A stretch of 64,000 nucleotides of DNA, from IMG/VR virus record IMGVR_UViG_3300025357_000008, positions 32,001 through 96,000 of that record; one strand, given 5' to 3'. The stretch comes from a virus. Taxonomy: Duplodnaviria; Caudoviricetes. The notes under the pieces were generated by a model. The model saw only the letters and a program-made list of their open reading frames with translations, searched no databases and was not told where the DNA came from. Shown here piece by piece: positions 31,715 to 64,000 of the stretch; position 1 is the first letter of the stretch; every line of letters starts with the position of its first letter. A program made the translations under genes and the position numbers.

Positions 31715-32467
31715 ATGACAATACCTGATAGTTCATGGTCTGAACCGTTTTCAACGGCAAAACCACAGTACCCCTACAACAATGTAAAGCAGACTAGGGG
31801 TGGTCATCTATTTGAAATGGATGATACACCTGGTGCAGAAAGAATTCGTTTGCAACATGGAACGGCAAACAATTTTACAGAATGGCAAGCAGACGGCACA
31901 GGAATTACTAAGATTTTCGGTAATGGTTATCAAATTACAATGGCAAACAACAATGTCTACATAGGTGGACAATGTAATATTACCGTTGTAGGTCCTTCAG
32001 TCATGCACGTTCAAGGTGATTCCTATATACAAGTTGACGGTAATGTTAATCAGACTGTTGGTGGTGATATGATAACTCATGTTACCGGTAATGCTGAGAT
32101 TATTGGTGAAGGTGATTTAGATATTTCAACAAATGGTGCGTTAACTCTTTCAGCAGACTCATTACTTTTAAATTCTGATTTGACTGTAAATGGTAGTGTA
32201 ACAGCTCTAGGCGGTATTTCAGCAGTAAGTTCAATATCTTCTTCAACTGGTAGTATACTTGCACCTCTAGGTTCAGTTGCAGTCGGCCTTAAAGCATTGA
32301 CACCTGCGGTTCTTGTACCAGGAAACATTTATGATGCAGGACCTTTAGCAACACCTGATACCTCAACACTTTCTGCATTAAGAACTTTCTACGATACACA
32401 TACTCATATTGCAATTGGTTTAGGCTCACCAACAGCACCTCCAATACCATTAGACCCATCCGTTTAA
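31715..32467 (+). CDS. gp5: gp5 C-terminal beta-helix spike
   Basis: YPYNNV..T.GGHLFEMDDTPGAERIRLQHG, V.G beta-helix repeats, terminal HTH(HxH). Confidence 0.85.
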   Translation: MTIPDSSWSEPFSTAKPQYPYNNVKQTRGGHLFEMDDTPGAERIRLQHGTANNFTEWQADGTGITKIFGNGYQITMANNNVYIGGQCNITVVGPSVMHVQGDSYIQVDGNVNQTVGGDMITHVTGNAEIIGEGDLDISTNGALTLSADSLLLNSDLTVNGSVTALGGISAVSSISSSTGSILAPLGSVAVGLKALTPAVLVPGNIYDAGPLATPDTSTLSALRTFYDTHTHIAIGLGSPTAPPIPLDPSV

Positions 32468-48643: not shown

Positions 48644-51580
48644 ATGGCTACGATTTTTACAGCAACAATTTTACCAACTCTAACATATGCAAATACTTTT
48701 GTAGATTGGTTTACAACAACGAATACAATTGTTGTTGATTTTAATAACTTCTCTGCTAATGCATATGCAAAAAACACAGGTACTCTGTATCTTAATGAGG
48801 CTACTACTGCTTTAGTTGTAGGTAACGGTGTTGCACAATTCGGTAATCAAGTTCAGATTACTGGTACAGGTTCTTATCTAACAGTTGATAATAATATTGT
48901 AATGAACTATGGACAGTTGGTAGTTTCAAATGCCAACTCAAGTATTATTGCTTCTGGTGTCGTACAAGTCGGTAATACAGTATATGCTAATGGTGCTAAT
49001 ACAGGTTTGTTTGTTGCTAACAATGCAACTTTAAATTCAAACGCATACATTACAGGTAACGCATATTTTGGTAAACAAATTTTTGTTACCGGCCCTGTTA
49101 CTCTTAACGCATTAACTGTTCAAGGTACCACATCAATACAAAACACTTTGACGATTAGCGGTACAACAAACGTTAATAATACTCTTACTGCAACCGGTAA
49201 CGTAAATGCTTTATGGTTCAATGCGACAAACGGACTTACTGGTACTCTTGCAAACATTAGCGGTTATGCTAACTCTGGTCGTTTAGCTACAACATTAACT
49301 GGTCAGATTGGTACTCAGTTGTATGTTGGTGATTCAATCTATACAACAAATAGCACATTCGCAAATATAAACTATTCTAATACAGTTGTTGCTAACACAT
49401 CTGTAACGTCAAATGTCATCACAGCAAATACAATTCAAGGAAACTTGAATGTCAATACTGCAACTGTAACTGCATCTGTTGGTAATATTGTTTCTTTAAA
49501 TGCAACTACTATTACAACAGGTAGTTTGTATGCTAACAATATTACAGCATATCAAAATTTAAACGCTAACAATGAATATGCAAACGTAATCGTTGCTAAT
49601 ACATCTATTCTCACACCAGCATTAAATGTTTCGGTATCGTTGACAGCAAATACTGCTAATGCATACTTCAGTAATGTATTCGCAACAAACTTAACATTGA
49701 GTGGTAATCTTGCAATCAGTTACCCAATTGTTTCAACATCAAATTCATTTACATTAAACGCTAACAATACCACAGCAACACCTTTTGCACAGTTTGTTAT
49801 CAATCGTGGTACAGGTTCTAATACTGCACAAATTCAATGGTATGAATCTGGTAAACAATGGCAGATTAATGATGTAACAACAAATCAGTTCTATTCAATT
49901 CTAACTTCTGAAGTTGCAAACAGTAGCCTAGTATTAAATAGTACATCTAATATTGCAACATCTCAAGCAGTCTATACTGCAAATCTATTTGCTCAAGCCG
50001 CATTTAACGTTGCAAATGCCGCATATACATCTGCAAATAACGTTGCCCCACAGATTCAACCTGCATTTAATCAAGCAAACTCTGCTTCAAATATTGCCAA
50101 TTCAGCATTTGCAGAAGCTAATATTGTATACACATTAGCAAACACAATAAGCAACACTACTAACTCAGCATACGCAAGAGCAAATGCATCCGCTAATTTG
50201 TTTACTGCAAACGGTAATACAGCATCACCAAGCAACGGCGGTATATCTTTTGCAAGCCTTTACGGTGAGTCTATCAATGCCTCAGGCAATACAATTACGA
50301 TTGGCACTTCACAAGATTTAAGGTCTTCTGCATCACCAACATTCAACACACTAACACTAACAGGCAACTTAGCAGTCGGACAAGGTGGTACAGGTTCTAC
50401 AACAGCCGCTGGTGCTGTTCAAAATCTATTACCTGCAAACACTAATCAAATCGGTTTCTTCTTGCAGACAACAGGTCCTGGTAACTTTGGATGGATTTCT
50501 AATACTGCTAACAGTCTTGCTTATACAGTACCTACTGGTGTTGCGGCAACTAATAATAACGTTCAACTAGCATTGAATGATTTGTATTTTAACAAAGCAA
50601 ACTTAGCATCACCACAGTTTACTGGAACACCTAATTCAGTAACTCAAGCAACTACAACACAGAATACTACTATTGCAACTACTGGCTTTGTAGGTGCTCT
50701 CGCAAACTCTGGTTATTATTTCTCTCACAATATTACCGGTACTGCTCAGTACGCAAACAATTTATATCAAACAACATATAGTACAGCAGGTAGTGTTCCT
50801 TATCAATCCGCTCAAGGTACAACAGCATTTACTGCCGCTGGTGCAACATCTCAAGTTCTGATTGGTGGTACTTCACCATCATGGCTGAATATGAGTTCTA
50901 TGACAGTCGGTGCCGCTACTCTTGCAAATGCAACATCTAATATTGCCGGTGGTGGTGCAGGTCAGATACCATATAACACAGCATATGGTGCGACATCATT
51001 TATTGGTGCCGGTACTGCTGGTCAAGTTTTAGTTTCTGCTGGTACAGGAACACCAGTGTGGTCAAGTTCCGTACAGCAAAGTTCAGTCACAGCATCTGGC
51101 GCTGGTATATTTTCAACTTTAACATCTAACAATGCAGTAAATGCAGTTAGCATTAATGCAACAACTTCAGCAAATATTGCAAACGTCACAGCAAGTTTCA
51201 TCACTAATACTGGTAACTATTATAGTGGCGGATTAATCAGCGTAGTCGGTAATATTATTGCTTACTCTGGTTCTGATAGAAAATGGAAAGAAAATATCAG
51301 AGACATTGAAGGTGCTCTTGATATTGTTGATGCTGTTGGTGGTAAATTATTTGATTGGACAGATGAATATATTGCACAGAATGGTGGTCTGAATGATTAT
51401 TCAATGCAGAAATCTGATTTCGGTGTTGTTGCTCAAGACCTGAGAGAAGTTTTCCCAGTTGCAACAAGGGTAAGACCAGACGGCTCTCTTGCAGTTGACT
51501 ATGAAAAATTATGTGCTGTAGCATTTGCCGCTATCAAAGATTTACGTGCAGAAGTTGAAGCATTAAAGCAATCAAAGTAA
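48644..51580 (+). CDS. tail fibre with C-terminal S74 chaperone
   Basis: NTF..W...TN N-terminus, beta-repeat shaft, SP.FTGTP, SDRKWKENI...GVVAQD...VDYEKL. Confidence 0.85.
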   Translation: MATIFTATILPTLTYANTFVDWFTTTNTIVVDFNNFSANAYAKNTGTLYLNEATTALVVGNGVAQFGNQVQITGTGSYLTVDNNIVMNYGQLVVSNANSSIIASGVVQVGNTVYANGANTGLFVANNATLNSNAYITGNAYFGKQIFVTGPVTLNALTVQGTTSIQNTLTISGTTNVNNTLTATGNVNALWFNATNGLTGTLANISGYANSGRLATTLTGQIGTQLYVGDSIYTTNSTFANINYSNTVVANTSVTSNVITANTIQGNLNVNTATVTASVGNIVSLNATTITTGSLYANNITAYQNLNANNEYANVIVANTSILTPALNVSVSLTANTANAYFSNVFATNLTLSGNLAISYPIVSTSNSFTLNANNTTATPFAQFVINRGTGSNTAQIQWYESGKQWQINDVTTNQFYSILTSEVANSSLVLNSTSNIATSQAVYTANLFAQAAFNVANAAYTSANNVAPQIQPAFNQANSASNIANSAFAEANIVYTLANTISNTTNSAYARANASANLFTANGNTASPSNGGISFASLYGESINASGNTITIGTSQDLRSSASPTFNTLTLTGNLAVGQGGTGSTTAAGAVQNLLPANTNQIGFFLQTTGPGNFGWISNTANSLAYTVPTGVAATNNNVQLALNDLYFNKANLASPQFTGTPNSVTQATTTQNTTIATTGFVGALANSGYYFSHNITGTAQYANNLYQTTYSTAGSVPYQSAQGTTAFTAAGATSQVLIGGTSPSWLNMSSMTVGAATLANATSNIAGGGAGQIPYNTAYGATSFIGAGTAGQVLVSAGTGTPVWSSSVQQSSVTASGAGIFSTLTSNNAVNAVSINATTSANIANVTASFITNTGNYYSGGLISVVGNIIAYSGSDRKWKENIRDIEGALDIVDAVGGKLFDWTDEYIAQNGGLNDYSMQKSDFGVVAQDLREVFPVATRVRPDGSLAVDYEKLCAVAFAAIKDLRAEVEALKQSK

Positions 51581-51624: not shown

Positions 51625-51978
51625 ATGGCCGCAGGATATCAAAATCTCTACCTAGAACAAGGTGCATCTTTTGCATTTACAATCACATTAGATGATGTAT
51701 ATGGAGAGGCCTACTCTCTTTCTGGCGCCAATGTGTATAGTAAAATGAGGTATTCTTACTATACACCTAACGTAGCGGCAACTTTTGCCACAACAATTTC
51801 GGCAAATACAGGTCAAGTTACGTTTTCTTTAGACTCAGCCAATACGGCAAACATCACACCAGGTCGTTATGTATACGATGCTGTGCTTTCTTTCTACGCT
51901 GGTAGTGGTCAAGCGAACACAGTCATTAGAATCCTTGAAGGAATTGCAGAAGTTGCTCCTGGTGTAACATCGGGGTAA
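51625..51978 (+). CDS. virion structural adaptor protein
   Basis: NL.LEQGA.F...GRYVYD....RILEG...V.PGVT; CTAAATA late promoter at 51591. Confidence 0.75.
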   Translation: MAAGYQNLYLEQGASFAFTITLDDVYGEAYSLSGANVYSKMRYSYYTPNVAATFATTISANTGQVTFSLDSANTANITPGRYVYDAVLSFYAGSGQANTVIRILEGIAEVAPGVTSG

Positions 51979-51981
51979 CAT

Positions 51982-52206
51982 ATGGCAACTAATCCACCTT
52001 CATCAGTCAAAGTAACCATTGGTCAAAACACACCAAAAGTAACTGCGGTTTCTTATGGTGGTCTTCGTTCGCTTGCAGGTTCAACAGATTTGAATCTTGC
52101 CGGTGCTCAAGACGGTGACGTTATTGTTTACTCGCAATCACAGAAATTGTTTTACGTTGAAAATATTGGCAACGCTATTACATCTATTGATAACGGATAC
52201 TTTTAA
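51982..52206 (+). CDS. small virion linker protein ending IDNGYF
   Basis: L....D.......DG.VIVY motif; C-terminal DNGYF. Confidence 0.7.
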   Translation: MATNPPSSVKVTIGQNTPKVTAVSYGGLRSLAGSTDLNLAGAQDGDVIVYSQSQKLFYVENIGNAITSIDNGYF

Positions 52207-54329
52207 TGTCATCAAATACAGTTAATGTACAGATACTAAGGTCCTATGGATCTTATCAACCAACAAACTTACTTGATGGGCAGTTAGCGTATTCCTTTCA
52301 ATCTAATACACTATACATCGGTACAAATAGTAATGGTATTGTTACTATTGGTGGTGTCACACCTTTAGCTCGTATTCAAACTGCCTTCAATGCGGCAAAT
52401 AGTTCAGGTGATTTTGCAAACTCTGCTTTCACACGTGCTAATCTTGCCTATGCGGCCGCTAATGCCGCTGGTTCATCAACAACAATAAACTTAGCATATC
52501 AAACTGCTAACTCGGCATTTAGTCAGGCTAATCTTGCCTATGCGGCCGCTAATGCCGCCGGTTCATCTACTACAACTAACAATGCTTATGCAACTGCTAA
52601 CTTAGCTTTTGCACAAGCGAATGCCGCTTTCAATGCGGCTAATAGTGGTGTAACTGCATCATATGCTTTTAATCAAGCTAACAGCGCATACAATCAAGCC
52701 AACGTAGCATTTGCGGCGGCTAATGCGGCAGGTTCTTCTACGACTGTAAATGCGGCCTTCTTAACTGCTAACTCTGCTTTTACACAATCAAATAACGCAT
52801 ATAACAAAGCAAACTCAGCAAACGTTCTAGCACAGTCTGCTTTTGGTGCCGCTAACGTAGGTAACACATTTGTTACTACTGGAGGTACTGTAACAGGTAA
52901 CGTAACAGTTTCAAACAATCTAACTGTATCTGGTAACTTATATGTACTAGGTAACTTAACTGCTATCAATACAACACAAGAAGAAACAAACGCACCGTTA
53001 ATCTTCTTAGCAAACAATAACACATCTTCTGATACAGTTGACATCGGTTTTGTTGGTAACTATAATGCAACAGGTAATGCGTTTACTGGTTTGTTTAGAA
53101 ACCCAACCCTTAAAGAGTTTATATTCTTTCAGAACTATGCATCACCTATTGGCTCAAACAATCTAATTAATATTAGTGACCCTAGTTTTGCATATGCAAA
53201 CGTGTACTCAAATTACTTCAAAGGTAATGTAATAAGTCACGGTGTAGATGTATTCTATTATTCTAACTCTGCTTTCTCAGTTGCAAATACGGCATCATCA
53301 AATACTGTAGCACTTCAAGGTATTGAAAATGCACAGAATACAAACATTGCGTATTCATGGACAACTGCAAATGCCGCTTTTGCAAATGCAAACTCTGCAA
53401 TTCTATATCAAACGGCAATTAGTAATTCGGTAAACAGTATTGCTGTTGGTGGTGCACCTGTACAGAACGCTCAAGTATGGTCTACACTAACTGTATCACA
53501 AGTCTTTGATGCAATTCTGTTCCCAACAATCGGTCCTACATATACAATACCTACAATATCTTTAAGCGGTACTGCTTCTGGTACTGTAGAAGTCGGTTCA
53601 ACAATCACTCAGACAATGACTCTGACTGGTACTAAGAACGATGCTGGTGCATTCCTTGCATTGTATATTCAACGTAATAGTGCGAACATTGCTACGATTA
53701 GTAACCCATCAGGTACAGCAACAACTAATATTGCATCTCAGTATGGCTATAGCGATCCTAACAATCAAAACTATTACTATACATTAAGTAATACAGATAC
53801 TGCTATTGCAACAACTGGTACATTCACATGGGCGGGTTACGGTAACTATAATGCTGGTGTTGCTAAGTTAACAAACAAAGGACAGACAGATGCAAACGGT
53901 GCTCAACTTCGTTCAACTGTTTATCCTCAAGCCGCTGGTTCAGCGTTCGGTTCAGGTTCTTATTCAGTAACTGGTATCTATCCATACTTTTGGGGTGTAT
54001 CATCAACGCAACCGACAGCCGCAAGTATTGCATCAGCAATTCAAGCAGGCACAGCAAACAAAGTACTTGCAGTTGGTTCAGGAACACTTACAATCACATT
54101 CAATGCAAGTTCTCAATACGTTTGGCTTGCAGTACAAAATAGCTATGCAACAAAGACAACATGGTATAATACTGCTCTAAATAACGGTAGTATTGGTGCA
54201 GGTCAATTTATATTGAGTCCTGTAACACAAGCAGTCACTTCACCAACATCTCTCTGGTCTGGCGTTAATTATAATATGTACATCTCTGGTTACTCAACGA
54301 CAACTAGCGGCTCAATACAGTTCTCATAA
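52206..54329 (+). CDS. fibre protein with N-terminal RS...GQLA domain and heptad repeats
   Basis: ILRS...P..L.DGQLAYSF..LYIG; AN.A(F/Y) heptads; DIGFVG domain. Confidence 0.8.
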   Translation: MSSNTVNVQILRSYGSYQPTNLLDGQLAYSFQSNTLYIGTNSNGIVTIGGVTPLARIQTAFNAANSSGDFANSAFTRANLAYAAANAAGSSTTINLAYQTANSAFSQANLAYAAANAAGSSTTTNNAYATANLAFAQANAAFNAANSGVTASYAFNQANSAYNQANVAFAAANAAGSSTTVNAAFLTANSAFTQSNNAYNKANSANVLAQSAFGAANVGNTFVTTGGTVTGNVTVSNNLTVSGNLYVLGNLTAINTTQEETNAPLIFLANNNTSSDTVDIGFVGNYNATGNAFTGLFRNPTLKEFIFFQNYASPIGSNNLINISDPSFAYANVYSNYFKGNVISHGVDVFYYSNSAFSVANTASSNTVALQGIENAQNTNIAYSWTTANAAFANANSAILYQTAISNSVNSIAVGGAPVQNAQVWSTLTVSQVFDAILFPTIGPTYTIPTISLSGTASGTVEVGSTITQTMTLTGTKNDAGAFLALYIQRNSANIATISNPSGTATTNIASQYGYSDPNNQNYYYTLSNTDTAIATTGTFTWAGYGNYNAGVAKLTNKGQTDANGAQLRSTVYPQAAGSAFGSGSYSVTGIYPYFWGVSSTQPTAASIASAIQAGTANKVLAVGSGTLTITFNASSQYVWLAVQNSYATKTTWYNTALNNGSIGAGQFILSPVTQAVTSPTSLWSGVNYNMYISGYSTTTSGSIQFS

Positions 54330-54332
54330 AAC

Positions 54333-57300
54333 ATGTCAATTATTCTAAACGACAATCTAAGTATACAGGCACCTAAGGGAGTTGATTCTCGTTTTGGCCC
54401 ATATGTAAATACAACTATTGCTTTATCGAGTGTTGGGTCTGCGGTTCGTTATCAAGGTTTAACAATTGGCATCAATTCTGCAAATGCAAGTGCGAATGGT
54501 GGTAATACTGTTATTGAGTATTGGTTTCGTGACGGTATTGCAGATGGTGATTTAACTTACAAAGTTGACCCTACTGCTAACTTAGCATATGCACAAGCTA
54601 ATGCCGCCTTTAATGCGGCCAATAGTTCAGGTGGCGGTAGTTCAGCGGCCGCTTTCAATCAAGCGAATGCCGCCTTTGCACAAGCTAATGCCGCCTTTGC
54701 ACAAGCAAACACAGGCTCTAGTTCTGCACCAGCTTTTAATCAAGCTAATGCCGCTTTCAGTCAAGCAAACGTAGCCTTTAATACTGCTAACTTAGCATAC
54801 ACACAAGCAAACTCAAGTTATACTGCACAAAATACAACAGCATCTTTTGCTAACGGTGCTTTTGTTGTTGCAAACTCGGGAGCATTATTTGCTAATAGTG
54901 CTTTTGCTACTGCAAATGCTTCCTATAATGCACAAAATATAACTGCTGGTTTCGCTAATGCCGCATATGCATATGCAAATACATTAGGAACAAATGAGGC
55001 ATCTGCATTTAATACTGCTAATGCCGCTTATGCACAAGCAAATACTGCTTATGCTAATTCAAATACGTTCATAACGTTTATCACAGGCGTTGAAACAAGT
55101 CAGAACAATAATATTTCTTCCGCATTTACTCAAGCTAATAATGCGGCCATATTTGCTAATGGTGCTTTCACAGTTGCCAATGCCGCTGTAAGACGTGCCG
55201 GTGATACAATGACTGGTAACTTAGTGATTGCTGGTGCTAATTTAACAGTAGGTACTGCACTTGCCGCTTATGCAAATGGTAACGTTGTAATCTCTCAAGC
55301 AACAGGACAAATTGTCCTTGCAGGAAATACATATGCAGGACATATGTTACCTGCCGCTAATGCTGATGGTACTGGTGTAGGATATGATTTAGGTTCCCCA
55401 ACAAGTCGTTGGAGAAAAATCTACGTTACTGGTACAACGATTGATATTGGTGGCGCTTTAATTCAAGCACAAGGTAATGCGATTTCACTAACCAGCGGAA
55501 CAGGCGCTACGTTTGCCGTTTCTGGTACAGGTGCAAACTCTGTAGGTTCTTTTGCAAGTTTAACAGCAAATGCCGGTATTGATTCAACTAATTCTGTTAG
55601 CGGTACAATTATCGTCACTGGTGGTGTTGGTATTTCTAATAATGCTTTCATCGGTGGTAATACAACTGTAGCATATCAATTAACTGCAAATCAACACACA
55701 TTCGGTATTGATGGTACAAGTCAGTACACAGCGGCCGCACCTTATGCATATTCTAATGCATCATTCTTGACTGCTAATAGTGCTTATACTGCACAGAATA
55801 TTACTGCTGGTTTTGCTAATGCCGCTTTCTTAGTCGCAAACAGTTCATTTGTTGCAGAAAACATTACTGCTTCGTTTGCCAACTCTGCTTATACACAAGC
55901 AAATGCGGCCTTTAATCAAGCAAATACGGCATCTTCTTTTGCTAATGGTTCGTTTACAACTGCAAATTCTGCATCTTCTAATACAGTAACATTGCAAGGT
56001 ATTGAAAATGTACAGAACACCAATATTACAGCATCGTTTGCACAAGCAAATGCATCTTACAATGCTCAAAATACAACTGCATCATTTGCAAATAGTGCCT
56101 TCGTAACAGCAAACTCTTCTTATTCTGCTCAAAACATAACTGCTGGTTTTGCAAACGCATCATATACGGCACAAAATACTACGGCAGGATTTGCCAACGG
56201 TGCATTTGTTACTGCTAATGCATCTTATGCGGCACAAAATATAACTGCTTCGTTTGCTAACAGCGCATATTCTTTTGCAAATTCAATTAATACTTATGCA
56301 TATGCCGCCTTTTCTTATGCAAATACATTAAATGCAGTAAACGTAGCATCAGCATGGAACACATCTAATGCCGCTTTCATTCAAGCAAATAGTGCTTTCA
56401 ATGCACAAAACATAACAGCAGGATTTGCAAATGCTTCTTACACGTTTGCTAATAGCATCAACATATATGCGTACTCTGCTTATGCGGCCGCTAATGTTGG
56501 TAATACATTCGTTTCAACTGGTGGTACAGTTGCTGGTTCTGTTGTTATCAGCACTGATTTACATGTCACTGGTAACTTGTATATTGCTGGTAATTCCACT
56601 TTTGTTAACGCAAATAATATATCAACAAACGATTCGATTATTTTAATTGGTACCAATAATACATCTAACGTTGTTGATTTGGGTATTGTCGGACACTTTA
56701 CAAATAACGGATATCAAAGAACTGGTTTTGTTCGTAATCACAATACAGGCATTTGGGGACTGTTCAGCAATCTAACATCAGAACCTTCAACAACAATCAA
56801 CTGGTCTGATGCCAATTTAATTTATGATAAGATTCAAACCGGTAACATTACGACTCCAGCAATATATGTTGCAGGTGTAGAACTTGGTGCTTATGCGAAT
56901 ACTGTTAATGCTTATTCTTATGCATCGTATGCATCTCAAAACATTACCGCATCGTTCGCTAACGGCGCTTTTGCTACTGCAAATGCATCATATGCATCTC
57001 AAAACATTACCGCATCGTTCGCTAACGGCGCTTTTGCTACTGCAAATGCTTCCTATAATGCACAGAACACTACCGCATCATTCGCTAATAGTGCCTTTGT
57101 AACAGCAAACGCATCATACAATTCGCAAAACACAACAGCATCTTTTGCTAACGGTGCATTTATAACTGCAAATGCATCATATAACTTTGCTAATAGTGTC
57201 AACACATATGCGTATGCCGCATTTGCAAAAGCAAATTCTCTCACAACTTCAGGCATTACAGTTGTTAATTTTACTGGTGACGGTGCAACTACATCATTTG

Positions 57301-58871
57301 CATTAGGCGTTACACCGTATTCTATCAATGCAACGTCTGTTAACTATAACGGTATTACATTACTAAGAAATAGTTATACATTGTCTGGTGCAAATATTGT
57401 CTTCTCAAGCCCACCTGCTAATACAGCATTAATTGAAGTTACAGTATCAACTCAAACTGTTTCAACTAATACTTCAATAAGTTCAGGTAATAACGGCAAC
57501 GTTCAATTTGCATTGGCAAATAATATAATTGGTTCTGATGCCAACTTTGTATATCTAACATCTAATACAACACTATTAGTACCAAACGCATATTATACCG
57601 GTAACGTAAGTATTCAAGGTAACTTGTATGTTAACGGTACTGTAACAACATTCAATAATGTAACTGTTAACACGACAGAAACAATTACAACAACACTAAC
57701 TCTTAGTGGTTTGAATGTCTATCCTTATATTACTTCAAGTTATGGTTTTTCTAACACAGTCAACACTTATGCATATGCATCATATTCAGCACAAAACATA
57801 ACTGCTGGTTTCGCTAATGCATCTTATACTGCACAAAATACAACAGCCTCATTCGCAAATAGTGCTTTTGGTCAAGCTAACTCTGCCGCTGTATTTGCAA
57901 ACGGTGCATTTACATTTGCTAACAGCGTAAATACCTATGCATATTCAGCATATGCTTTTGCAAATTCTGTTAACGTATACGCACGTGCCGCATTTGCACA
58001 AGACAATTTAGTATTCTCAGTTGCAAATTCTGCTGGTCTGTTTGCTAATGGTGCTTTTGTAACAGCAAACGCTTCTTTTATACAAGCAAATAATTCACTT
58101 GCAAACGTTGGTTCTTTAATAACTGTGAACGGTGTTTCGCAATTTGCGATAACGAATTCTCAAGTATCAACTTCAATAACTACTGGTGCATTAACAGTTG
58201 CTGGTGGTGTGGGTATTACTGGTAATACTTATGTCGGTGGTGATGTATTTGCAAATAATGGTGTCTATTCTGGCAATACATTCCAACCTGTGATAGGTTC
58301 ATTCAATGACGGTATTGTTATGGACTACGTTCAAGGTACAAATGGTATCGGTAGAATTTCAGTCGGTCCAAATGATTACATAACATTCTATACTGGCGGT
58401 GTCGGTACTACTCCTGTTGCAAACGTGTACAGTAACGGTGCGTTTACAAGTACAAACGTAACAGCAAGTAACAATATTACAACTAACACGTTTACTGCTA
58501 CTGGTCTTGTCACCATACAACAAACTACAGAAAATATTACGAACACTGGTAATCCTGGTTCTTCTGTGACTTATGATTTCAATGCTGGACCTACATACTA
58601 TAATACCGGTATGACACAAAACTGGACAGCAAACTTTACAAATGTACCAACAACACAAAATAAATCAGTTCTAGTTACTTTGATTAACAATCAAGGTAGC
58701 ACAGCATATTATCCAAGTACTATTCAAGTTAACGGAACAGGTTATACACCAAAATGGTTAGGCGGAACTTCTTACACTGGTAATGCAAGTCAATGGGATT
58801 TCCTCACATTTGCCATCATAAATATTGGTGGTACTATAACTGTTCTTGGTTCATACGCAACATATTATTAA
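54333..58871 (+). CDS. long fibre protein with extensive AN.A(F/Y) heptad coiled coils
   Basis: 1512 aa; GDTMTG.L, DLGSP..RW..IY, FTGDG.TTSF and C-terminal domains typical of T4-like fibres. Confidence 0.8.
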   Translation: MSIILNDNLSIQAPKGVDSRFGPYVNTTIALSSVGSAVRYQGLTIGINSANASANGGNTVIEYWFRDGIADGDLTYKVDPTANLAYAQANAAFNAANSSGGGSSAAAFNQANAAFAQANAAFAQANTGSSSAPAFNQANAAFSQANVAFNTANLAYTQANSSYTAQNTTASFANGAFVVANSGALFANSAFATANASYNAQNITAGFANAAYAYANTLGTNEASAFNTANAAYAQANTAYANSNTFITFITGVETSQNNNISSAFTQANNAAIFANGAFTVANAAVRRAGDTMTGNLVIAGANLTVGTALAAYANGNVVISQATGQIVLAGNTYAGHMLPAANADGTGVGYDLGSPTSRWRKIYVTGTTIDIGGALIQAQGNAISLTSGTGATFAVSGTGANSVGSFASLTANAGIDSTNSVSGTIIVTGGVGISNNAFIGGNTTVAYQLTANQHTFGIDGTSQYTAAAPYAYSNASFLTANSAYTAQNITAGFANAAFLVANSSFVAENITASFANSAYTQANAAFNQANTASSFANGSFTTANSASSNTVTLQGIENVQNTNITASFAQANASYNAQNTTASFANSAFVTANSSYSAQNITAGFANASYTAQNTTAGFANGAFVTANASYAAQNITASFANSAYSFANSINTYAYAAFSYANTLNAVNVASAWNTSNAAFIQANSAFNAQNITAGFANASYTFANSINIYAYSAYAAANVGNTFVSTGGTVAGSVVISTDLHVTGNLYIAGNSTFVNANNISTNDSIILIGTNNTSNVVDLGIVGHFTNNGYQRTGFVRNHNTGIWGLFSNLTSEPSTTINWSDANLIYDKIQTGNITTPAIYVAGVELGAYANTVNAYSYASYASQNITASFANGAFATANASYASQNITASFANGAFATANASYNAQNTTASFANSAFVTANASYNSQNTTASFANGAFITANASYNFANSVNTYAYAAFAKANSLTTSGITVVNFTGDGATTSFALGVTPYSINATSVNYNGITLLRNSYTLSGANIVFSSPPANTALIEVTVSTQTVSTNTSISSGNNGNVQFALANNIIGSDANFVYLTSNTTLLVPNAYYTGNVSIQGNLYVNGTVTTFNNVTVNTTETITTTLTLSGLNVYPYITSSYGFSNTVNTYAYASYSAQNITAGFANASYTAQNTTASFANSAFGQANSAAVFANGAFTFANSVNTYAYSAYAFANSVNVYARAAFAQDNLVFSVANSAGLFANGAFVTANASFIQANNSLANVGSLITVNGVSQFAITNSQVSTSITTGALTVAGGVGITGNTYVGGDVFANNGVYSGNTFQPVIGSFNDGIVMDYVQGTNGIGRISVGPNDYITFYTGGVGTTPVANVYSNGAFTSTNVTASNNITTNTFTATGLVTIQQTTENITNTGNPGSSVTYDFNAGPTYYNTGMTQNWTANFTNVPTTQNKSVLVTLINNQGSTAYYPSTIQVNGTGYTPKWLGGTSYTGNASQWDFLTFAIINIGGTITVLGSYATYY
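56928..57049 (+). repeat. tandem duplication, 63-nt period
   Basis: 59 nt identical at 56928-56986 and 56991-57049 (YASQNITASFANGAFATANA). Confidence 0.9.
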
Positions 58872-58873
58872 TT

Positions 58874-59908
58874 ATGAGTAGAATATCATCGTCAAGTGGC
58901 TTTGGGTTTTCAGGTGTTGGAATGGCTACTGCCAACTTAAAACCGATTCCAGTAACTGTTAATTATGTTTTGGTTGCCGGTGGTGGGTCAGGTGGTACTT
59001 TTGGTGGCGGTGGTGCTGGTGGTGTATTGTCTGGTCAAGTTACTTTTCCTAAAAAAGGTTCGACTGTAACAGTAACTATTGGTGGTGGAGGTGTTGCCGC
59101 AAATAATGGAGGACCTTTAGTATATCCTGGTAATGCTGGAGGTTATTATGTGAGAGGTACTAGCGGTTCAGGTTCTACAATATCGAATCCTTGCACATTA
59201 GGATCTGTAAGTTCAACAGGCGGTGGTGCCGGACGTGGTGGGTGGCCAGGTATGTGTTCAAGTTTTGGTGCATTAGGTGGAGGGTCTGGTGGTGGTGGTG
59301 CATCTGGCGGTAATCCTCAAAGTGCGCCCGGAGTACCAGGTCAAGGAAATCCTGGAGGTTCTGGAACCACCCCTTCAGGTATGTTTTTCGGTAGTGGTGG
59401 TGGAGCAGGAAGTGCAGGGACTTCAGGTGTAGGGGCAAATGGTGGTTCTGGACGAGTAATAACTATTATGGGTCCTAGTTCACCTGTAACAGTTGGTGGT
59501 GGAGGTGCGGCTGGCGGTTGCCAAGGGTGCAGACCAACATTTTATCCTAGTCCGTATTTTTTTTATACTGCAGGCGGTACAGGTGGCTCTGGTGGGGGCG
59601 GTAATGGTGGTAGTGGAGGTGTGCAAGGTGCATATGCGACTGGACGTACTGCTGGTACTGTAAATACTGGGGGTGGGGGTGGTGCTGGCGGATTTACAGG
59701 TTGGAACTTTATACAACCACCAACACATTCATGTTCTCCAAATGAGGAATGGTTTCCTGGTATGAATGGTGGTTCTGGTGTCGTCTTCATTTCAGCGAAT
59801 ACTGCAAAGAAAGGAACTGCCGGACCACCAACCGTTTTCACAACAGGAACTGACGGCCTAGGTAACACTTGGTTTAAATTCACTTCTTCTGGTACATATC
59901 GAGTATAA
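58874..59908 (+). CDS. glycine-rich putative receptor-binding adhesin
   Basis: YVLVAGGG.GG..GGGGAGG, NTGGGGG, GGSGVV, FTSSGT; likely start ATG58874 just after the fibre stop. Confidence 0.75.
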   Translation: MSRISSSSGFGFSGVGMATANLKPIPVTVNYVLVAGGGSGGTFGGGGAGGVLSGQVTFPKKGSTVTVTIGGGGVAANNGGPLVYPGNAGGYYVRGTSGSGSTISNPCTLGSVSSTGGGAGRGGWPGMCSSFGALGGGSGGGGASGGNPQSAPGVPGQGNPGGSGTTPSGMFFGSGGGAGSAGTSGVGANGGSGRVITIMGPSSPVTVGGGGAAGGCQGCRPTFYPSPYFFYTAGGTGGSGGGGNGGSGGVQGAYATGRTAGTVNTGGGGGAGGFTGWNFIQPPTHSCSPNEEWFPGMNGGSGVVFISANTAKKGTAGPPTVFTTGTDGLGNTWFKFTSSGTYRV

Positions 59909-59910
59909 AA

Positions 59911-60132
59911 ATGTCACTAACTGTAATAGAACCCTTCAATTTAGATAATTCCGCAAGTTATATTGTTAGCAGTTTAAATGCTGGTAACACTATAAATGTG
60001 GGAACCACACTTTATCTAAATAATATAGCGGTTAGTAACACTAATAACTCTCTGACGGTTAACTCTGCGATGACAATTTCTGGTAATGTTTATGCGAATT
60101 TGGTAGGCTACGTTGACGGCGGCTCATTTTAA
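59911..60132 (+). CDS. small virion protein ending VDGGSF
   Basis: 73-aa ORF, C-terminal DGGSF. Confidence 0.7.
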   Translation: MSLTVIEPFNLDNSASYIVSSLNAGNTINVGTTLYLNNIAVSNTNNSLTVNSAMTISGNVYANLVGYVDGGSF

Positions 60133-60159
60133 CATAAAACAACATAAAAGGAACATCAC

Positions 60160-62970
60160 ATGTCTGGTGGAGTCTCAAATTCAAGTATTCTAATTAAACG
60201 TTCCACGGCTACTGGTCGTCCTAGTTCGCTTAAATCCGGTGAGTTAGCTTACTCATATCTCTCAAACACAATCTTTATCGGTACATCCGATGGTACTAGC
60301 ACACTAAACGTTGGCGGTCAGTACTACACATCACAACTTGATTCAGCAACACCGTTAAACGTTGCGAACACAATCGTTAGACGAGATGCCGCAGGTAATT
60401 CGTATTTCGGTAACGTTGTTGTTTCTGGTTTCATTACCGGTACAATTCAAGGTACTTCTAATAACGCAACAGCACTTGCATCACCACAGAACTTTGGTAT
60501 TTCTGGTGGTGATATTACTGCTTCAAACATTGCTTTTAACGGTACTTCTGCTGTAATATTAAGCGCATCACTTAATAACGTTAGCGGTTTAAGTGGTGGT
60601 ACAGTCGGTTCTAATACTTCTATTCCTGTTATCACTTACGGTGCAAACGGTAGAATTTTAAACGTTTCTTCTGTAACAGTAAGTGCAAACTATCAACCCG
60701 CATTTGATTGGGCAAACTCTGCATACAATGCGGCAAATAGTTCAAGTAATACAGCATTTAGTGCTTATGCAAGAGCAAATGCCGCCTACAATCAAGCAAA
60801 TAGCGCATATTCTTTAGCAACCACAGCAGAATCAGATGCTCAGACAGGTATTACAAATGCGGCACAAGCATATTCAGCCGCTTGTACAGCACAACAACTT
60901 GCACAAAGTGCCTATACTGCACAAAATACAACAGCATCTTTTGCTAATAGCGCCTTTGGTCAAGCTAACTCTGCCGCTGTATTTGCTAACGGTGCGTTTG
61001 CATCAGCAAATGCTGTCCAGTTCACAATTACTGACGGCACACACTCTAATACATTCTATAGATCCGGTACATTAACAGTTACAGGAACTACTGGTGTAAC
61101 AGCAGTCGCTTCTGCAAACACATTAACATTTGGTACAGATAACACAGTATTACGTTCTAATACAACATCAGGTATCGGTGCTACACAAAATATTAATACT
61201 TCATTAAGTATAACAGGCAACTTGACAACAGGTAATATCATACCTTCGTCTGCTTACATGTCTATCGGTACATTTGCAAACCCTGTTCAAGAGTTGTATG
61301 TTTCTTCTAACTCATTGAATGTTGGTGGTATTTCTTTAAGCAATACAGGTAGTGTATTAACAATCGGTGGTGGTGTAACTGATTTAGCAGTAAGCACATC
61401 ATTTGGACCATTGTCTAACATTGCATCAGTCGCAAATACTGGTTACAACTTTGTTAATACTGGCGGTACAGTTAATGGTAACGTTAACATCGTTGGTAAC
61501 TTAGTAGTTCGTGGTACAACAACACAAGTCGATACTACAACAGAAACAACAACAGCAGGTACAATTGGTCTAGCCGCTAATAATACTGGTGACGTTATTG
61601 ATATCGGTCTATACGGAACATATGTTAACGGTACTACAAAACTTACCGGTTTGGTTAGAGGACCAGGAACAAGTAACTACTACTTGTTTAATAATATCAA
61701 TGCTACTGAACTTTCTGGTAACAACATTCCATCCGCAGACTTTACTGCCGCAAACTCAGCAACATTGTATGCTAACGTTGTTTCTTATCAAACATCATCT
61801 AGCGGCCAAGCAACATTCGGTTCTGTCGTATCAAATACTGCAATTGCTGTATCTTCTGGTGGTACTGGTGCCGCAACATTCTCTGCTGGTCAAATCTTAG
61901 TTGGTAACGGCACAGGTGCTCTACAAGTTCTTGCAAATACAGGTACTGCCGGTACATATGGTAATGCAAATACTATTGCAGTAACAACTACAGATGCTTA
62001 TGGTCGTGTTTCTGGCGTAACAAATACAGCAATATCCGGTCTAACAGTAACACAAGGTGGTACTGGTGCATCGTCATTCTCTGCTGGTCAGATTGTTATC
62101 GGAAACGGTTCTGGTGCATTACAAGTTCTTGCTAACACAGGAACTGCTGGTACATACGGTAATGCTAATACGATTGCAGTTACAACAACAGATGCATACG
62201 GACGTGTTTCTGGTATAACAGCAACACCAATTGCTATCACATCTGGTCAAATTACAAATACGACAGGTAATACAGGTACTTCAGTTGTCTTATCAGCTTC
62301 ACCAACATTAACTGGTACTACACAAGTTGCCACGATAGTTGCCGCAGTTGCTAATGCATCATCTGCTAATATTACAACAGCAAACGTTGGAACATTATAC
62401 GCTAATACAGTCTCAGTCGGTGGTGGTTTAACATATACCGCTTCAGGATTGTTTGCTGGATTCTCTTCTAATGCTAACAACTATCAGCAAGTTGTAATTG
62501 AGAACGCAAATACAGGTACTCAAGCATCAGCAGACTTCATTGTTTCTAACGGCATTTCAACTGATGGAGCCTTCTACGGTGACTTCGGTATGAACGGTCA
62601 GAACTTCTCTGGTTCTGGTTCATTGAATACTGCTAATACTGTTTACTTGTATGCCGCTAACGTTGATTTAGCAATCGGTACTACAACATCAAATGCTATT
62701 CACTTTGTTGTTAATAACGGTACAACAGATGCCGCCACAATTGCATCTAACGGTATGTTCTCATTAGCGACTGCTCTTGGTACTGCATACGGTGGTACTG
62801 GTGCTTCATCATTTACATCTGACGGTATTATCTACGGTAACGGTGGTGGTGCTCTACAAGCAACAGTAGCCGCTGGTACTTCAGACCAAGCATACACTAA
62901 CCAAGTGTTGACAGTTACTAACTCTGGTGTTCCAGTTTGGTCATCTGCTGTTGATGGAGGCACGTTCTAA
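60160..62970 (+). CDS. fibre protein with N-terminal KRS...GELA domain, ending VDGGTF
   Basis: ILIKRS....P.SL..GELAYSY; heptads; internal duplication of GGTGA..FSAGQI..GNG...DAYGRV. Confidence 0.8.
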   Translation: MSGGVSNSSILIKRSTATGRPSSLKSGELAYSYLSNTIFIGTSDGTSTLNVGGQYYTSQLDSATPLNVANTIVRRDAAGNSYFGNVVVSGFITGTIQGTSNNATALASPQNFGISGGDITASNIAFNGTSAVILSASLNNVSGLSGGTVGSNTSIPVITYGANGRILNVSSVTVSANYQPAFDWANSAYNAANSSSNTAFSAYARANAAYNQANSAYSLATTAESDAQTGITNAAQAYSAACTAQQLAQSAYTAQNTTASFANSAFGQANSAAVFANGAFASANAVQFTITDGTHSNTFYRSGTLTVTGTTGVTAVASANTLTFGTDNTVLRSNTTSGIGATQNINTSLSITGNLTTGNIIPSSAYMSIGTFANPVQELYVSSNSLNVGGISLSNTGSVLTIGGGVTDLAVSTSFGPLSNIASVANTGYNFVNTGGTVNGNVNIVGNLVVRGTTTQVDTTTETTTAGTIGLAANNTGDVIDIGLYGTYVNGTTKLTGLVRGPGTSNYYLFNNINATELSGNNIPSADFTAANSATLYANVVSYQTSSSGQATFGSVVSNTAIAVSSGGTGAATFSAGQILVGNGTGALQVLANTGTAGTYGNANTIAVTTTDAYGRVSGVTNTAISGLTVTQGGTGASSFSAGQIVIGNGSGALQVLANTGTAGTYGNANTIAVTTTDAYGRVSGITATPIAITSGQITNTTGNTGTSVVLSASPTLTGTTQVATIVAAVANASSANITTANVGTLYANTVSVGGGLTYTASGLFAGFSSNANNYQQVVIENANTGTQASADFIVSNGISTDGAFYGDFGMNGQNFSGSGSLNTANTVYLYAANVDLAIGTTTSNAIHFVVNNGTTDAATIASNGMFSLATALGTAYGGTGASSFTSDGIIYGNGGGALQATVAAGTSDQAYTNQVLTVTNSGVPVWSSAVDGGTF

Positions 62971-62999
62971 ATAGATTATTAATATATTAGGAGTTTGAA

Positions 63000-63566
63000 A
63001 TGGATAATGAAAAGTATTTGAGTGGTTATGTTGACATATTAAAAAATGCATCAAGTGAATTGCAAAATAATAATTTTACTTTACAAGCGAATTTGAAGTT
63101 TTTAGAGTCTGCTCTGAGAGAGCAAGGAGAGCAGACTCAAAAATACATGATGATGGTTGCCGATTATGAAAAAGAAAAAGCTGAAAAAAGTGACGATGAA
63201 AATGAAACATTAACACAATTAAAAGCTGACAATGAGAAATTGAAAAAAGAATTATCTGAAAAGAATGATTCTTTATCTCAAAGTCAAACGAAACTGGATA
63301 ATATTAAAATTGAATTGCGTGATGAAATTCAACGATTGAAAAATCAAGTTGAACATTTGAATCAAGTTAATGGTACACTAACGTCTGCACAAAATGAAAA
63401 TGCTCAATTAAAAACTGAGAACAGCAGTCTTAAAGGTGAAATTGAAAATTTGAAACAGACTATTGCAACAACAATTGCCGCTAACCAAACTCCACAAAAA
63501 ACGAAGTCGTTTGTTAAACAAAAGACTTTGCCGACACAATCAATAGAAGACGGTGGAAATTTCTAA
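63000..63566 (+). CDS. coiled-coil protein ending EDGGNF
   Basis: Continuous charged heptad pattern; AGGAG RBS; CTAAATA at 62967. Confidence 0.75.
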   Translation: MDNEKYLSGYVDILKNASSELQNNNFTLQANLKFLESALREQGEQTQKYMMMVADYEKEKAEKSDDENETLTQLKADNEKLKKELSEKNDSLSQSQTKLDNIKIELRDEIQRLKNQVEHLNQVNGTLTSAQNENAQLKTENSSLKGEIENLKQTIATTIAANQTPQKTKSFVKQKTLPTQSIEDGGNF

Positions 63567-63570
63567 GTAA

Positions 63571-64000
63571 ATGGCAAATACAATAGTAAAAATTAAAAAA
63601 TCAGGTGTAACTGGTAACGTACCAGGTTCACTAGCATTGGGTGAGTTAGCAATTAACTATACCGATGGATTATTGTATTTTGCTAATGCTACAGGTGTCA
63701 GAGCATTTTCGGCTAACGACTCAATTCTCGCAAACGCCGCCTTTGCACAAGCTAATGCCGCTTTCAATGCGGCTAATAGCAGTTCAGGTACAGCGGCCGC
63801 TTATAATCAAGCCAATGCCGCTTTTGCTCAAGCAAATAATATTTCTAGTTATGCTAATGCACAGATAGCAATTACACAAGGTGTTGATACAACTCAGAAT
63901 ACAAACATTAGTTCTGCTCAGTTGTTCGCTAACGGTGCATTTACTGCCGCTAATGCGGTTAATACTTACGCATATGCCGCTTATGCATCTCAAAATATTA
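63571..64000 (+). CDS. fibre protein with KKS...GELA domain (runs off the window)
   Basis: Translated by hand: MANTIVKIKKSGVTGNVPGSLALGELAINYTDGLLYF... then AN.AF heptads; open to the window end. Confidence 0.8.
   Translation, partial: MANTIVKIKKSGVTGNVPGSLALGELAINYTDGLLYFANATGVRAFSANDSILANAAFAQANAAFNAANSSSGTAAAYNQANAAFAQANNISSYANAQIAITQGVDTTQNTNISSAQLFANGAFTAANAVNTYAYAAYASQNI

Follow-up and report, generated by a model that had tools for sequence, protein, structure and literature searches.

Fibre proteins set the host range of a phage, and in uncultured phages it cannot be told which fibre-like genes form one fibre, nor in what order. The question is raised here by a fibre gene cluster of an uncultured T4-like phage with a genome of 170,261 bp (IMG/VR), from which a stretch of 64,000 nucleotides, hereafter the window, was analysed. 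A first-pass annotation of the window had pointed out four ORFs that end in the same short motif, and three genes that start with a common "GELA" domain and each follow such an ORF. It proposed that the terminal peptide docks into the N-terminal domain of the next protein, so that fibres are chained from separate genes. The coordinates and sequences were all confirmed. With the terminal motif termed plug and the N-terminal domain termed socket, it is probable that these genes specify joints by which fibre proteins made separately are linked end to end.

Plugs and sockets in the genome

The genes of the cluster are listed below with their window coordinates.

51625..51978, + strand: LtfC-like β-sandwich protein, 117 aa (Pfam PF23926), probable virion-side anchor and root of the first chain
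51982..52206, + strand: root adaptor, 74 aa, with plug IDNGYF at 52186-52203
52206..54329, + strand: fibre, 707 aa, with type-A socket at about 52227-52355 (VQILRSY..P..L.DGQLAYSF; profile E 3.1e-12), without plug
54333..58871, + strand: fibre, 1512 aa, without socket or plug, between the two chains; no Pfam or PHROG match
58874..59908, + strand: Gly-rich protein (PHROG 2295), without socket or plug
59911..60132, + strand: plug-only adaptor, 73 aa, with plug VDGGSF at 60112-60129
60160..62970, + strand: fibre 1, 936 aa, with type-B socket at about 60184-60318 (ILIKRS..P.SL.SGELAYSY; profile E 1.3e-60) and plug VDGGTF at 62950-62967
63000..63566, + strand: coiled-coil protein, 188 aa, with conserved N-terminus, probably a flexible linker, and plug EDGGNF at 63546-63563
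63571..64000, + strand: fibre 2, with type-C socket at about 63580-63705 (IVKIKKSG..P.SL.LGELAINY), without plug; the gene starts in the window, encodes 533 aa and extends to genome position 97172

The Gly-rich gene was listed with a start at 58793, inside the gene before it; an in-frame ATG at 58874 is a more likely start.

Among the 751 ATG-initiated ORFs of at least 30 aa in the whole 170,261-bp genome, exactly four end in the pattern D[GN]G.F (IDNGYF, VDGGSF, VDGGTF and EDGGNF), where amino-acid composition predicts about 6e-5 per ORF. A looser pattern (D.G.[FYWL].?$) returned the same four and no others. A profile of the N-terminal domain detected exactly three sockets in the whole genome, in ORFs 52206, 60160 and 63571, with the consensus (I/V)x(I/L)(L/K)(R/K)S...P..L..G(E/Q)LA. 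All three begin a gene that comes right after a plug-ending gene, with gaps of -1, 27 and 4 nt, respectively. The four plugs and three sockets of the genome all lie within this cluster. ORF 60160 indeed has both a socket and a plug, and the coiled-coil protein, which is not a fibre, also ends in a plug, as had been noted.

The plug of ORF 60160 adjoins the coiled-coil gene and not a GELA gene. As a point against the joint reading, the genome has four plugs for three sockets, and the protein that follows this plug lacks the GELA domain: either acceptors of another type exist as well, or plugs and sockets do not pair one-to-one. For the 936-aa fibre, the acceptor of the plug is probably the conserved N-terminus of the coiled-coil protein. 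The description of the four plug carriers as otherwise unrelated is not wholly accurate: a G.V(L/I)...(W/F) element, 10-25 residues ahead of the plug, is common to the 74-aa adaptor and the 936-aa fibre as well. Pfam gave no match for any plug or socket protein, and only generic coiled-coil families for the coiled coil.

The four plugs are written in different codons, which indicates a constraint on the protein and no DNA repeat. A reading of the motif as a DNA repeat or recombination cassette was rejected on these grounds.

Adjacency and subtype matching in related loci

The related set comprised 80 IMG/VR loci, all found via homology to the socket. A plug gene lies directly upstream of 114 of the 122 unique socket genes, against 46 of the 560 other genes; the odds ratio over the 80 loci is 159, with a p value that is only nominal, since the loci share ancestry and the counts are not independent. 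An enrichment of this adjacency, named in the first-pass annotation as a check on its proposal, is thus present. The 46 non-socket genes are almost all the coiled-coil gene behind fibre 1. Eight socket genes have no standard plug upstream: most of these follow plug variants (DGGIFS, DCGFF, VNDTF), and two follow a different protein.

The two elements keep strict positions. ORFs ending in D[GAN]G.[FY] make up 175 of the 1770 unique ORFs of the loci, where composition predicts 0.1. In 299,799 aa, D[GA]G.[FY] stands 174 times at a C-terminus and 12 times internally, the latter at chance level. Sockets start at or near residue 1 in all database matches listed, and searches for internal sockets gave only two regex matches, both apparently spurious. 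The socket family counts 14,796 cluster representatives in a library of 1.84 billion proteins. Polypeptides with a plug fused to a following socket were found neither in the loci nor among the 150 best database matches, so that there is no "Rosetta stone" evidence.

The carriers of the plug are diverse and otherwise share little; they include the root adaptor, the 73-aa β-rich protein, fibres of 330-1054 aa, coiled coils, proteins of 314 and 401 aa, and "mini" proteins of 64-88 aa that consist of a socket and a plug and nothing else. The socket of the 707-aa fibre is of the same subtype as that of the minis. Root adaptor homologues are 66-95 aa long, others 177-178 aa; they end in D(A/S/N)Gx(F) and precede all type-A sockets, the homologue in Limnohabitans phage DC31 ending in IESGQY. 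In every locus spanning that position, the root adaptor is preceded by a protein of 112-114 aa ending in V(T/S)xF or VTR, and a homologue also precedes the adaptor in DC31. The idea that small plug-only ORFs are adaptors fits this constant place of the 74-aa plug protein after the LtfC-like anchor gene. In the window, the 117-aa protein matches LtfC (PF23926) with E 2.3e-6 and 28.5 bits (cut-off 27) over model positions 5-95 of 100. The 73-aa adaptor is conserved in loci L002-L004, immediately 5' of the homologous fibre. In most related loci, fibre 1 and fibre 2 are separated by a coiled-coil homologue of 145-251 aa that ends in (K/E/R)DGGxF; in L078, L079, L081 and phage DC31, which lack it, a type-C socket comes directly after the plug of fibre 1.

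Plug and socket subtypes go together. Type-A sockets are preceded by a D(A/S/N)G plug in 30 of 30 cases, type-B sockets by a hydrophobic-DGG plug in 37 of 50, and type-C sockets by a (K/E/R)DGG plug in 37 of 42. Within the root-adaptor family alone, DGG occurs before type-A sockets in 0 of 10 cases and before other sockets in 3 of 6 (p 0.036). Against the joint reading, the plug subtypes resemble one another closely enough that a protein bearing both socket and plug might polymerise with itself.

The C-terminal motif might instead serve its own carrier, as a folding nucleus or trimer cap, and the adjacency would then be the conserved gene order of an inherited module. Folding of fibre proteins is believed to start close to the C-terminus (PMC3004832), the hairpin-like G.V(L/I)...W element before the plug is common to the adaptor and fibre 1, and synteny by descent inflates counts in loci that were all found by socket homology. 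This explanation is nevertheless considered improbable. The motif also ends the coiled coil after a variable linker, minimal proteins of only 64 aa and many other kinds of carrier, but is missing from the terminal fibre of each chain, which must fold as well. Moreover, plug subtype follows the subtype of the socket downstream, also inside a single adaptor family, and the pairing persists from T4 to freshwater phages with everything between plug and socket replaced.

A signal in the nucleic acid was also considered, in the form of a ribosome-binding site in GGN GGN codons, or of a stop read-through or frameshift that fuses the proteins. Some gaps are indeed only 3-5 nt long, and Gly-Gly codons are purine-rich. 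Against this, codons differ between the copies, one plug having AAC GGA and not GGN GGN; gene 60160 has an AAAGGAA site of its own well after the motif; and the database matches and loci surveyed above contain no fused form. Across genomes, the distance from the plug gene to the socket gene varies between -1 and about 70 nt, with all three frames represented. On account of these varying spacings and frames, a ribosome-binding site and a read-through were both rejected, and a nucleic-acid or recoding signal is hardly credible here.

Relation to the T4 gp36-gp37 joint

In the T4 genome, the sole match of a socket profile built from the window and related loci (A7) is gp37 residues 6-48, with E 1.4e-10. 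The profile of the fibre 2 family (A5) aligns with gp37 residues 1-100 at 94.8% probability (hhalign), and tblastn of the same stretch of gp37 leads to a socket gene of a cyanophage. On these profile matches, the window sockets are assigned to the T4 gp37-type N-terminal domain family. T4 gp36 is a trimer known to bind gp37 in its N-terminal region (PMC3004832). The C-terminus of gp36 is DFGYY, encoded 8 nt upstream of gene 37, and five further diverse gp36 proteins of the Straboviridae end in D(F/Y)Gx(F/Y) with the same gene order. In cyanophage S-B43, an ORF ending in GDGGTFE stands immediately before a socket.

Taken together, the homology of the socket with gp37, the plug-like end of gp36 and the known gp36-gp37 binding mean that the joint is very probably the same as that of T4, used three times. 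In T4, gene order matches fibre order, as it would in the window phage, and in both systems the upstream partner ends in D-x-G-x-aromatic. T4, however, has one such joint, whereas the window phage has three sockets and four plugs, and one of its proteins bears both. At its second position, the plug has G, A, S or N in the window phage and its relatives, compared with F or Y in T4. BLASTP of gp36 against the 74-aa, 73-aa and 188-aa proteins gave no match, and the fibre shafts gave repeat-like matches only; by analogy, the plug carriers may work like gp36 without being members of its family.

Neither gp36 nor gp37 residues 1-100 have a structure in the PDB, and no peptide-level signature of their joint was found in the literature searched. 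Nor did the literature searches return a description of the plug and socket pattern; the paper on DC31 is silent on fibres. The T4 joint itself is known but not described at such detail.

Structure predictions

As modelled with AF2, residues 1-150 of the 936-aa fibre form a four-strand domain followed by a helix (pLDDT 81). For the joint itself, one pair was run as a multimer, namely a trimer of the type-C socket with a trimer of the C-terminus of the coiled-coil protein. The complex obtained an ipSAE of 0.54 (runs 0.54, 0.59 and 0.51), compared with 0.15 for the best of three controls. Of 80 solved complexes, 58 attain the mark applied to this score, as do 2 of 110 mismatched pairs. Scores at the mark but not above 0.60 are found for 7 of the 80 solved complexes and both passing mismatches, and the prediction, which lies above the mark in this weak band, was graded as weak support. 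Contacts are shared between the runs to at least 35%, and the fold of the partner itself is uncertain (pLDDT at least 46). Modelled as a monomer, a mini socket-plug protein has its plug at low confidence (pLDDT 52), and the fold leaves the plug unplaced. With the adjacency enrichment, the homology with gp37 and the plug-like end of gp36, the chained-fibre interpretation is supported; that the last five plug residues themselves contact the socket is inferred.

The small proteins and the coiled-coil protein that bear plugs could also be assembly factors and not parts of the virion. Their plug would hold the socket of a nascent fibre temporarily, for example aligning three chains in register or blocking premature joining, and would later be displaced. 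The coiled coil is trimer-like, with some 20-30 residues of variable linker ahead of its plug, and small chaperones, gp57A among them, are required for assembly of the T4 fibre (PMC3004832). With four plugs for three sockets, those of the 936-aa fibre and of the coiled-coil protein could compete for one socket. Yet T4 gp36, which has a homologous end, belongs to the fibre structure itself, and the fibre-specific chaperone gene 38 of T4 lies downstream of gene 37, whereas the genes here lie upstream. The mini proteins, being only socket and plug, also suit a chain link better than a chaperone. A role limited to assembly is therefore thought unlikely.

Comparison with other systems

The first-pass annotation had likened the GELA domain to the N-terminal domain of phage tropism proteins. 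Trimeric receptor-binding proteins such as Mtd of Bordetella phage BPP-1 and HylP of a streptococcal phage do open with a small N-terminal β domain (Mtd_N, PF18454). The mini model superimposes on Mtd residues 5-49 with Z 3.0 and an rmsd of 2.9 Å over 42 residues (VIA), tied with collagen XVIII trimerisation domains (Z 3.7), and also aligns to HylP residues 7-69. Foldseek matched it to 1yu0 with E 0.31 and probability 0.80, and relatives in BFVD with up to 49% identity are named Mtd_N-containing. Mtd_N was not matched by the window proteins in Pfam at E 0.1 or better, and by only 2 of 44 relatives, weakly (best E 0.009); the socket profile does not detect BPP-1 Mtd. Bbp9, encoded upstream of mtd in BPP-1, ends in ADLGGIA and not in the D-G-G-x-F motif. 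A weak resemblance of the socket to the Mtd and HylP domains is suggested, T4 gp37 being the closer relative. A Foldseek search with the 150-residue model of the 936-aa fibre gave nothing significant. A PDB profile search with the socket returned a WD-repeat-like designed protein at E 0.08, judged spurious, and no other match.

At the root of the first chain, the LtfC-like protein directly before the first fibre-chain protein recalls the T5-like phage DT57C, in which an LtfC collar anchors the lateral tail fibre protein LtfA and holds the N-terminal strands of the fibre by β-sheet augmentation (PMC10713586). The partner of LtfC in DT57C is the fibre N-terminus itself, whereas a 74-aa plug adaptor lies between the two in the gene order of the window phage. 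In the Pakpunavirus P7-1, a fibre is held at its N-terminal end by attachment loops, short peptide stretches of a second protein (PMC13338283). That peptide is an internal loop of a baseplate protein and not a free C-terminus as here, and no sequence relation was found.

The nearest terminases are those of the cyanomyoviruses S-CAM4 and ACG-2014e (54% identity). Neither phage has a socket by profile, so the joint is not general among the nearest cultured relatives. Megablast of the region against cultured phages found nothing. In tblastn-type searches of cultured phages, DC31 was the only match of the 936-aa fibre, and the 707-aa and 533-aa fibres had none.

Proposed joint and its implications

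In the proposed joint, the socket is an N-terminal domain of about 45 residues, with four short strands followed by a helix, which probably forms a trimeric cap. The plug, of the form hydrophobic/charged-D-(G/A/S/N)-G-x-F-COOH, is the extreme C-terminus of the protein that the preceding gene encodes. The three tails of a trimeric plug carrier would bind the socket trimer of the protein after it, presumably in a 3:3 arrangement, and gene order would give the order of assembly from the virion outward. One chain would thus run from the LtfC-like anchor (51625) through the 74-aa adaptor to the 707-aa fibre, and a second from the 73-aa adaptor through the 936-aa fibre and the coiled-coil spacer to the 533-aa fibre. 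Natural connectors such as the 64-aa socket-plug units and the coiled-coil spacers could be studied as modular parts.

A broader proposal, put forward tentatively and with chances that fall short of even, is that a D-x-G-x-F tail and a gp37-type cap form a general docking code of phage fibres that can be read from sequence, with subtypes fixing the order of assembly. The matched subtypes of tail and cap would be D(A/S/N)G(F/Y)F with ILRSY, hydrophobic-DGGxF with IKRS, (K/E/R)DGGxF with KKSG, and D(F/Y)GxY/F with the T-even FKRS. If this docking code were true, the gp36-gp37 joint of T4 would be explained, and fibre architecture, with its spacers and branches, would become predictable from gene ends in thousands of uncultured phages.

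Organization of the fibre cluster

The window covers positions 32001–96000 of a single viral contig of 170,261 bp, whose terminase shares 54% identity with the T4-like cyanophage enzymes; a search against cultured phages found no close relative. Between 51.6 and 64 kb lies one row of genes, all in the same orientation:

51625 (start), +, LtfC-like protein, 117 aa, first of the row
51982, +, root adaptor, 74 aa, ending in IDNGYF
52206, +, fibre, 707 aa, N-terminal socket
58871 (stop), +, fibre, 1512 aa
58874 (likelier start than the listed 58793), +, Gly-rich protein
59911, +, adaptor, 73 aa, ending in VDGGSF
60160, +, fibre 1, 936 aa, socket, ending in VDGGTF
63000, +, coiled-coil protein, 188 aa, ending in EDGGNF
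63571–64000, continuing to genome position 97172, +, fibre 2, 533 aa, socket

The listed start of the Gly-rich ORF overlaps the 3' end of the gene for the 1512-aa fibre; an in-frame ATG is present at 58874. As the first-pass annotation had claimed, four proteins share a terminal motif (the plug), and the three genes starting with the GELA-type domain (the socket, (I/V)x(I/L)(L/K)(R/K)S..P..L..G(E/Q)LA) each lie directly 3' of a plug-ending gene, 3/3. It was also right that the 936-aa fibre carries both elements and the coiled-coil protein a plug. Plugs outnumber sockets by four to three, and the one on fibre 1 precedes the coiled-coil gene. The conserved N-terminus of the coiled-coil protein, EKY(L/V)NYYIE...RN.S.QAN, might accept this plug and so represent another type of acceptor.

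Among the 751 ORFs of the genome, D[GN]G.F termini occur in exactly these four, and the much looser pattern D.G.[FYWL].?$ retrieves the same four only. The N-domain, sought by regular expression and profile, is present in three proteins only. The codons of the four plug motifs differ, indicating that the constraint acts on the protein and ruling out a DNA repeat or a recent duplication as their origin.

Plug and socket adjacency in related loci

Scanning IMG/VR with the N-domain yielded 80 loci with 1770 unique ORFs of at least 50 aa, 175 of which end in D[GAN]G.[FY], against 0.1 expected from composition. Using a simple gene call and counting unique genes, a plug-ending gene was found directly upstream of 114 of 122 socket genes and of 46 of 560 other genes (odds ratio 159), which is the enrichment that had been proposed as a check; the nominal p value of 8e-81 is an overstatement because the loci are related. 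Nearly all of the 46 are the coiled-coil gene 3' of fibre 1. The eight socket genes lacking a standard plug upstream mostly follow plug variants (DGGIFS, DCGFF, VNDTF), and two follow a different protein. The plug motif occurs 174 times at C-termini versus 12 times internally in 299,799 residues, the latter being chance level, and the socket is strictly N-terminal. No fused plug–socket polypeptide was found in the related loci or the 150 best database matches.

Sockets fall into three subtypes, each present once in the window.

Socket subtypes and upstream plugs (pairing partly confounded with carrier family)
Type A, ILRSY...DGELAYSF: D(A/S/N)G, 30/30
Type B, IKRS...GELAYSY: hydrophobic-DGG, 37/50
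Type C, KKSG...GELA(L/I)NY: (K/E/R)DGG, 37/42

The trend persists within the root-adaptor family alone, where DGG precedes 0/10 A sockets and 3/6 other sockets (p = 0.036, small sample).

The usual gene order opens with an LtfC-like protein (about 113 aa) and a root adaptor whose C-terminus reads D(A/S/N)GxF. These are followed by a "mini" protein of 64–88 aa consisting of socket and plug alone, fibre 1 with socket and plug, the coiled-coil protein with a plug, and fibre 2 with a socket and no plug. When the coiled coil is missing, as in L078, L079, L081 and Limnohabitans phage DC31, a cultured phage whose chain genes are all annotated "hypothetical", the fibre 1 plug directly precedes a fibre 2-type socket. 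In L013 (3129–4421), an ORF of 203 aa bearing an HNH-like motif (HHIIPKSLGG) follows fibre 1 in the usual place of the coiled-coil gene, which comes next; the ORF resembles a homing-endonuclease gene inserted into the chain. Most coiled-coil homologues (L006–L070) contain a nearly invariant YLQL(T/P)PAKRKKI(D/E) 20–30 residues before the plug, of which the window protein has a diverged version, QTPQKTKSFVKQK.

Structure prediction

In AlphaFold2 monomer models the socket is confidently predicted as a small domain, with four short strands and then a helix (mean pLDDT 81 for residues 1–150 of the 936-aa fibre; above 90 for the socket core in a mini protein of 64 aa). The resemblance to a known fibre N-terminal domain noted at first pass holds for the T4 gp37 N-terminus; the likeness to Mtd (residues 5–49, Z 3.0) and HylP (Z 3.0) is weak and tied with collagen XVIII trimerisation domains (Z 3.7). 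Pfam Mtd_N weakly matches 2 of 44 relatives, and socket relatives in BFVD include "Mtd N-terminal domain-containing" proteins and T-even distal long-tail-fibre subunits.

The suggested multimer prediction was run for the type-C socket, with three copies of fibre 2 residues 1–100, three of the C-terminal 80 residues of the coiled-coil protein, and a 37-row alignment for each. The ipSAE was 0.54 (runs 0.54, 0.59 and 0.51), versus 0.15 for the best of three controls. Of 80 solved complexes, 58 reach the ipSAE mark, as do 2 of 110 mismatched pairs; the band up to 0.60, holding only 7 of the 80 and both passing mismatches, makes this weak support. Contact agreement between the runs is at least 35%, and partner pLDDT at least 46. 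The outcome is compatible with docking, the score leaving the seat of the peptide unlocated.

Relation to the T4 gp36–gp37 joint

In T4, the socket profile has a single match, the gp37 N-terminal stretch (E 1.4e-10; 94.8% probability by profile-to-sequence alignment). gp36, encoded 8 nt upstream, ends in ...SVQDFGYY. Its homologues in phages of Pseudomonas, Acinetobacter, Klebsiella and Morganella, and an unannotated Krischvirus upstream protein, end in DFGYY, DYGSF, DFGTY, DFGEF and DFGTF, each preceding a gp37 socket; in Synechococcus phage S-B43, a 78-aa ORF ending in GDGGTFE precedes a socket. According to a review of T4 tail morphogenesis, trimeric gp36 first binds the gp37 N-terminal region (PMC3004832), so the window joints are homologous, on the acceptor side, to an experimentally established joint. 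On the donor side only the terminal peptide is common, no similarity of gp36 to the 74-, 73- and 188-aa proteins being detectable. Neither gp36 nor the stretch of gp37 up to residue 100 has a structure in the PDB, and a 2026 T4 cryo-EM preprint describes the gp36/gp37 N-terminal part at low resolution only, from predicted structures.

Other possible joints and fibre systems

Fibre 2 ends in IHPLMFVGL and is followed by 109-aa and 1547-aa proteins (genome 97182–102154). Three further downstream proteins have similar hydrophobic ends (SVLFGAQ, NPFFLAGM, HPFLLSFL), and in each case a small protein (about 110 aa) comes next; such tails may form a second kind of joint continuing the chain. Several fibre 2 proteins (L008, L023, L031, L046, L054, L062, L063) end in (F/Y)DYG(T/Y/F)(L/V), sometimes with 1–2 extra residues. 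In L008 (8557–9372) the next gene starts with MATQVQLRRGNTSQTNAFTGAVAEITIDTDKETIVVHD, a classical Mtd/HylP-type N-terminus, and the two could be a further plug–socket pair with D-x-G near the C-terminus. In Bordetella phage BPP-1 (4599–6125 and 3438–4583, minus strand), the fibre-like Bbp9 directly upstream of mtd ends in ...ANIGLADLGGIA, a loosely plug-like D-x-G-G-x-hydrophobic before a classical Mtd_N domain.

Fibre-like proteins of 978 and 1736 aa (48644–51580 and 41009–46219), the latter also with DUF4815, have C-terminal Peptidase_S74 intramolecular-chaperone domains and lack both plug and socket. The phage therefore uses at least two different fibre-building systems.

Proposed chain assembly

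Multi-protein fibres and the gp36–gp37 joint are textbook knowledge. In the literature searched, no description was found of the peptide-plus-cap signature, of how it is conserved between T4 and freshwater and marine phages, of its recurrence in one fibre cluster or of its transfer to carriers without mutual similarity. The 117-aa protein is an LtfC-like beta-sandwich. In phage DT57C, LtfC secures the N-termini of the lateral fibres through strand augmentation (PMC10713586), so the 117-aa protein is the probable starting point of the first chain. Both the small proteins and the coiled-coil protein may act as structural parts or, alternatively, as transient assembly factors. Because of T4, the N-domain as the attachment site for the upstream-encoded protein is the more secure part of the reading. 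It is also fairly likely that the peptide at the C-terminus of an upstream trimer docks on the N-terminal cap, itself trimeric, of the protein that follows, in which case the order of the chain would be read from the order of the genes.
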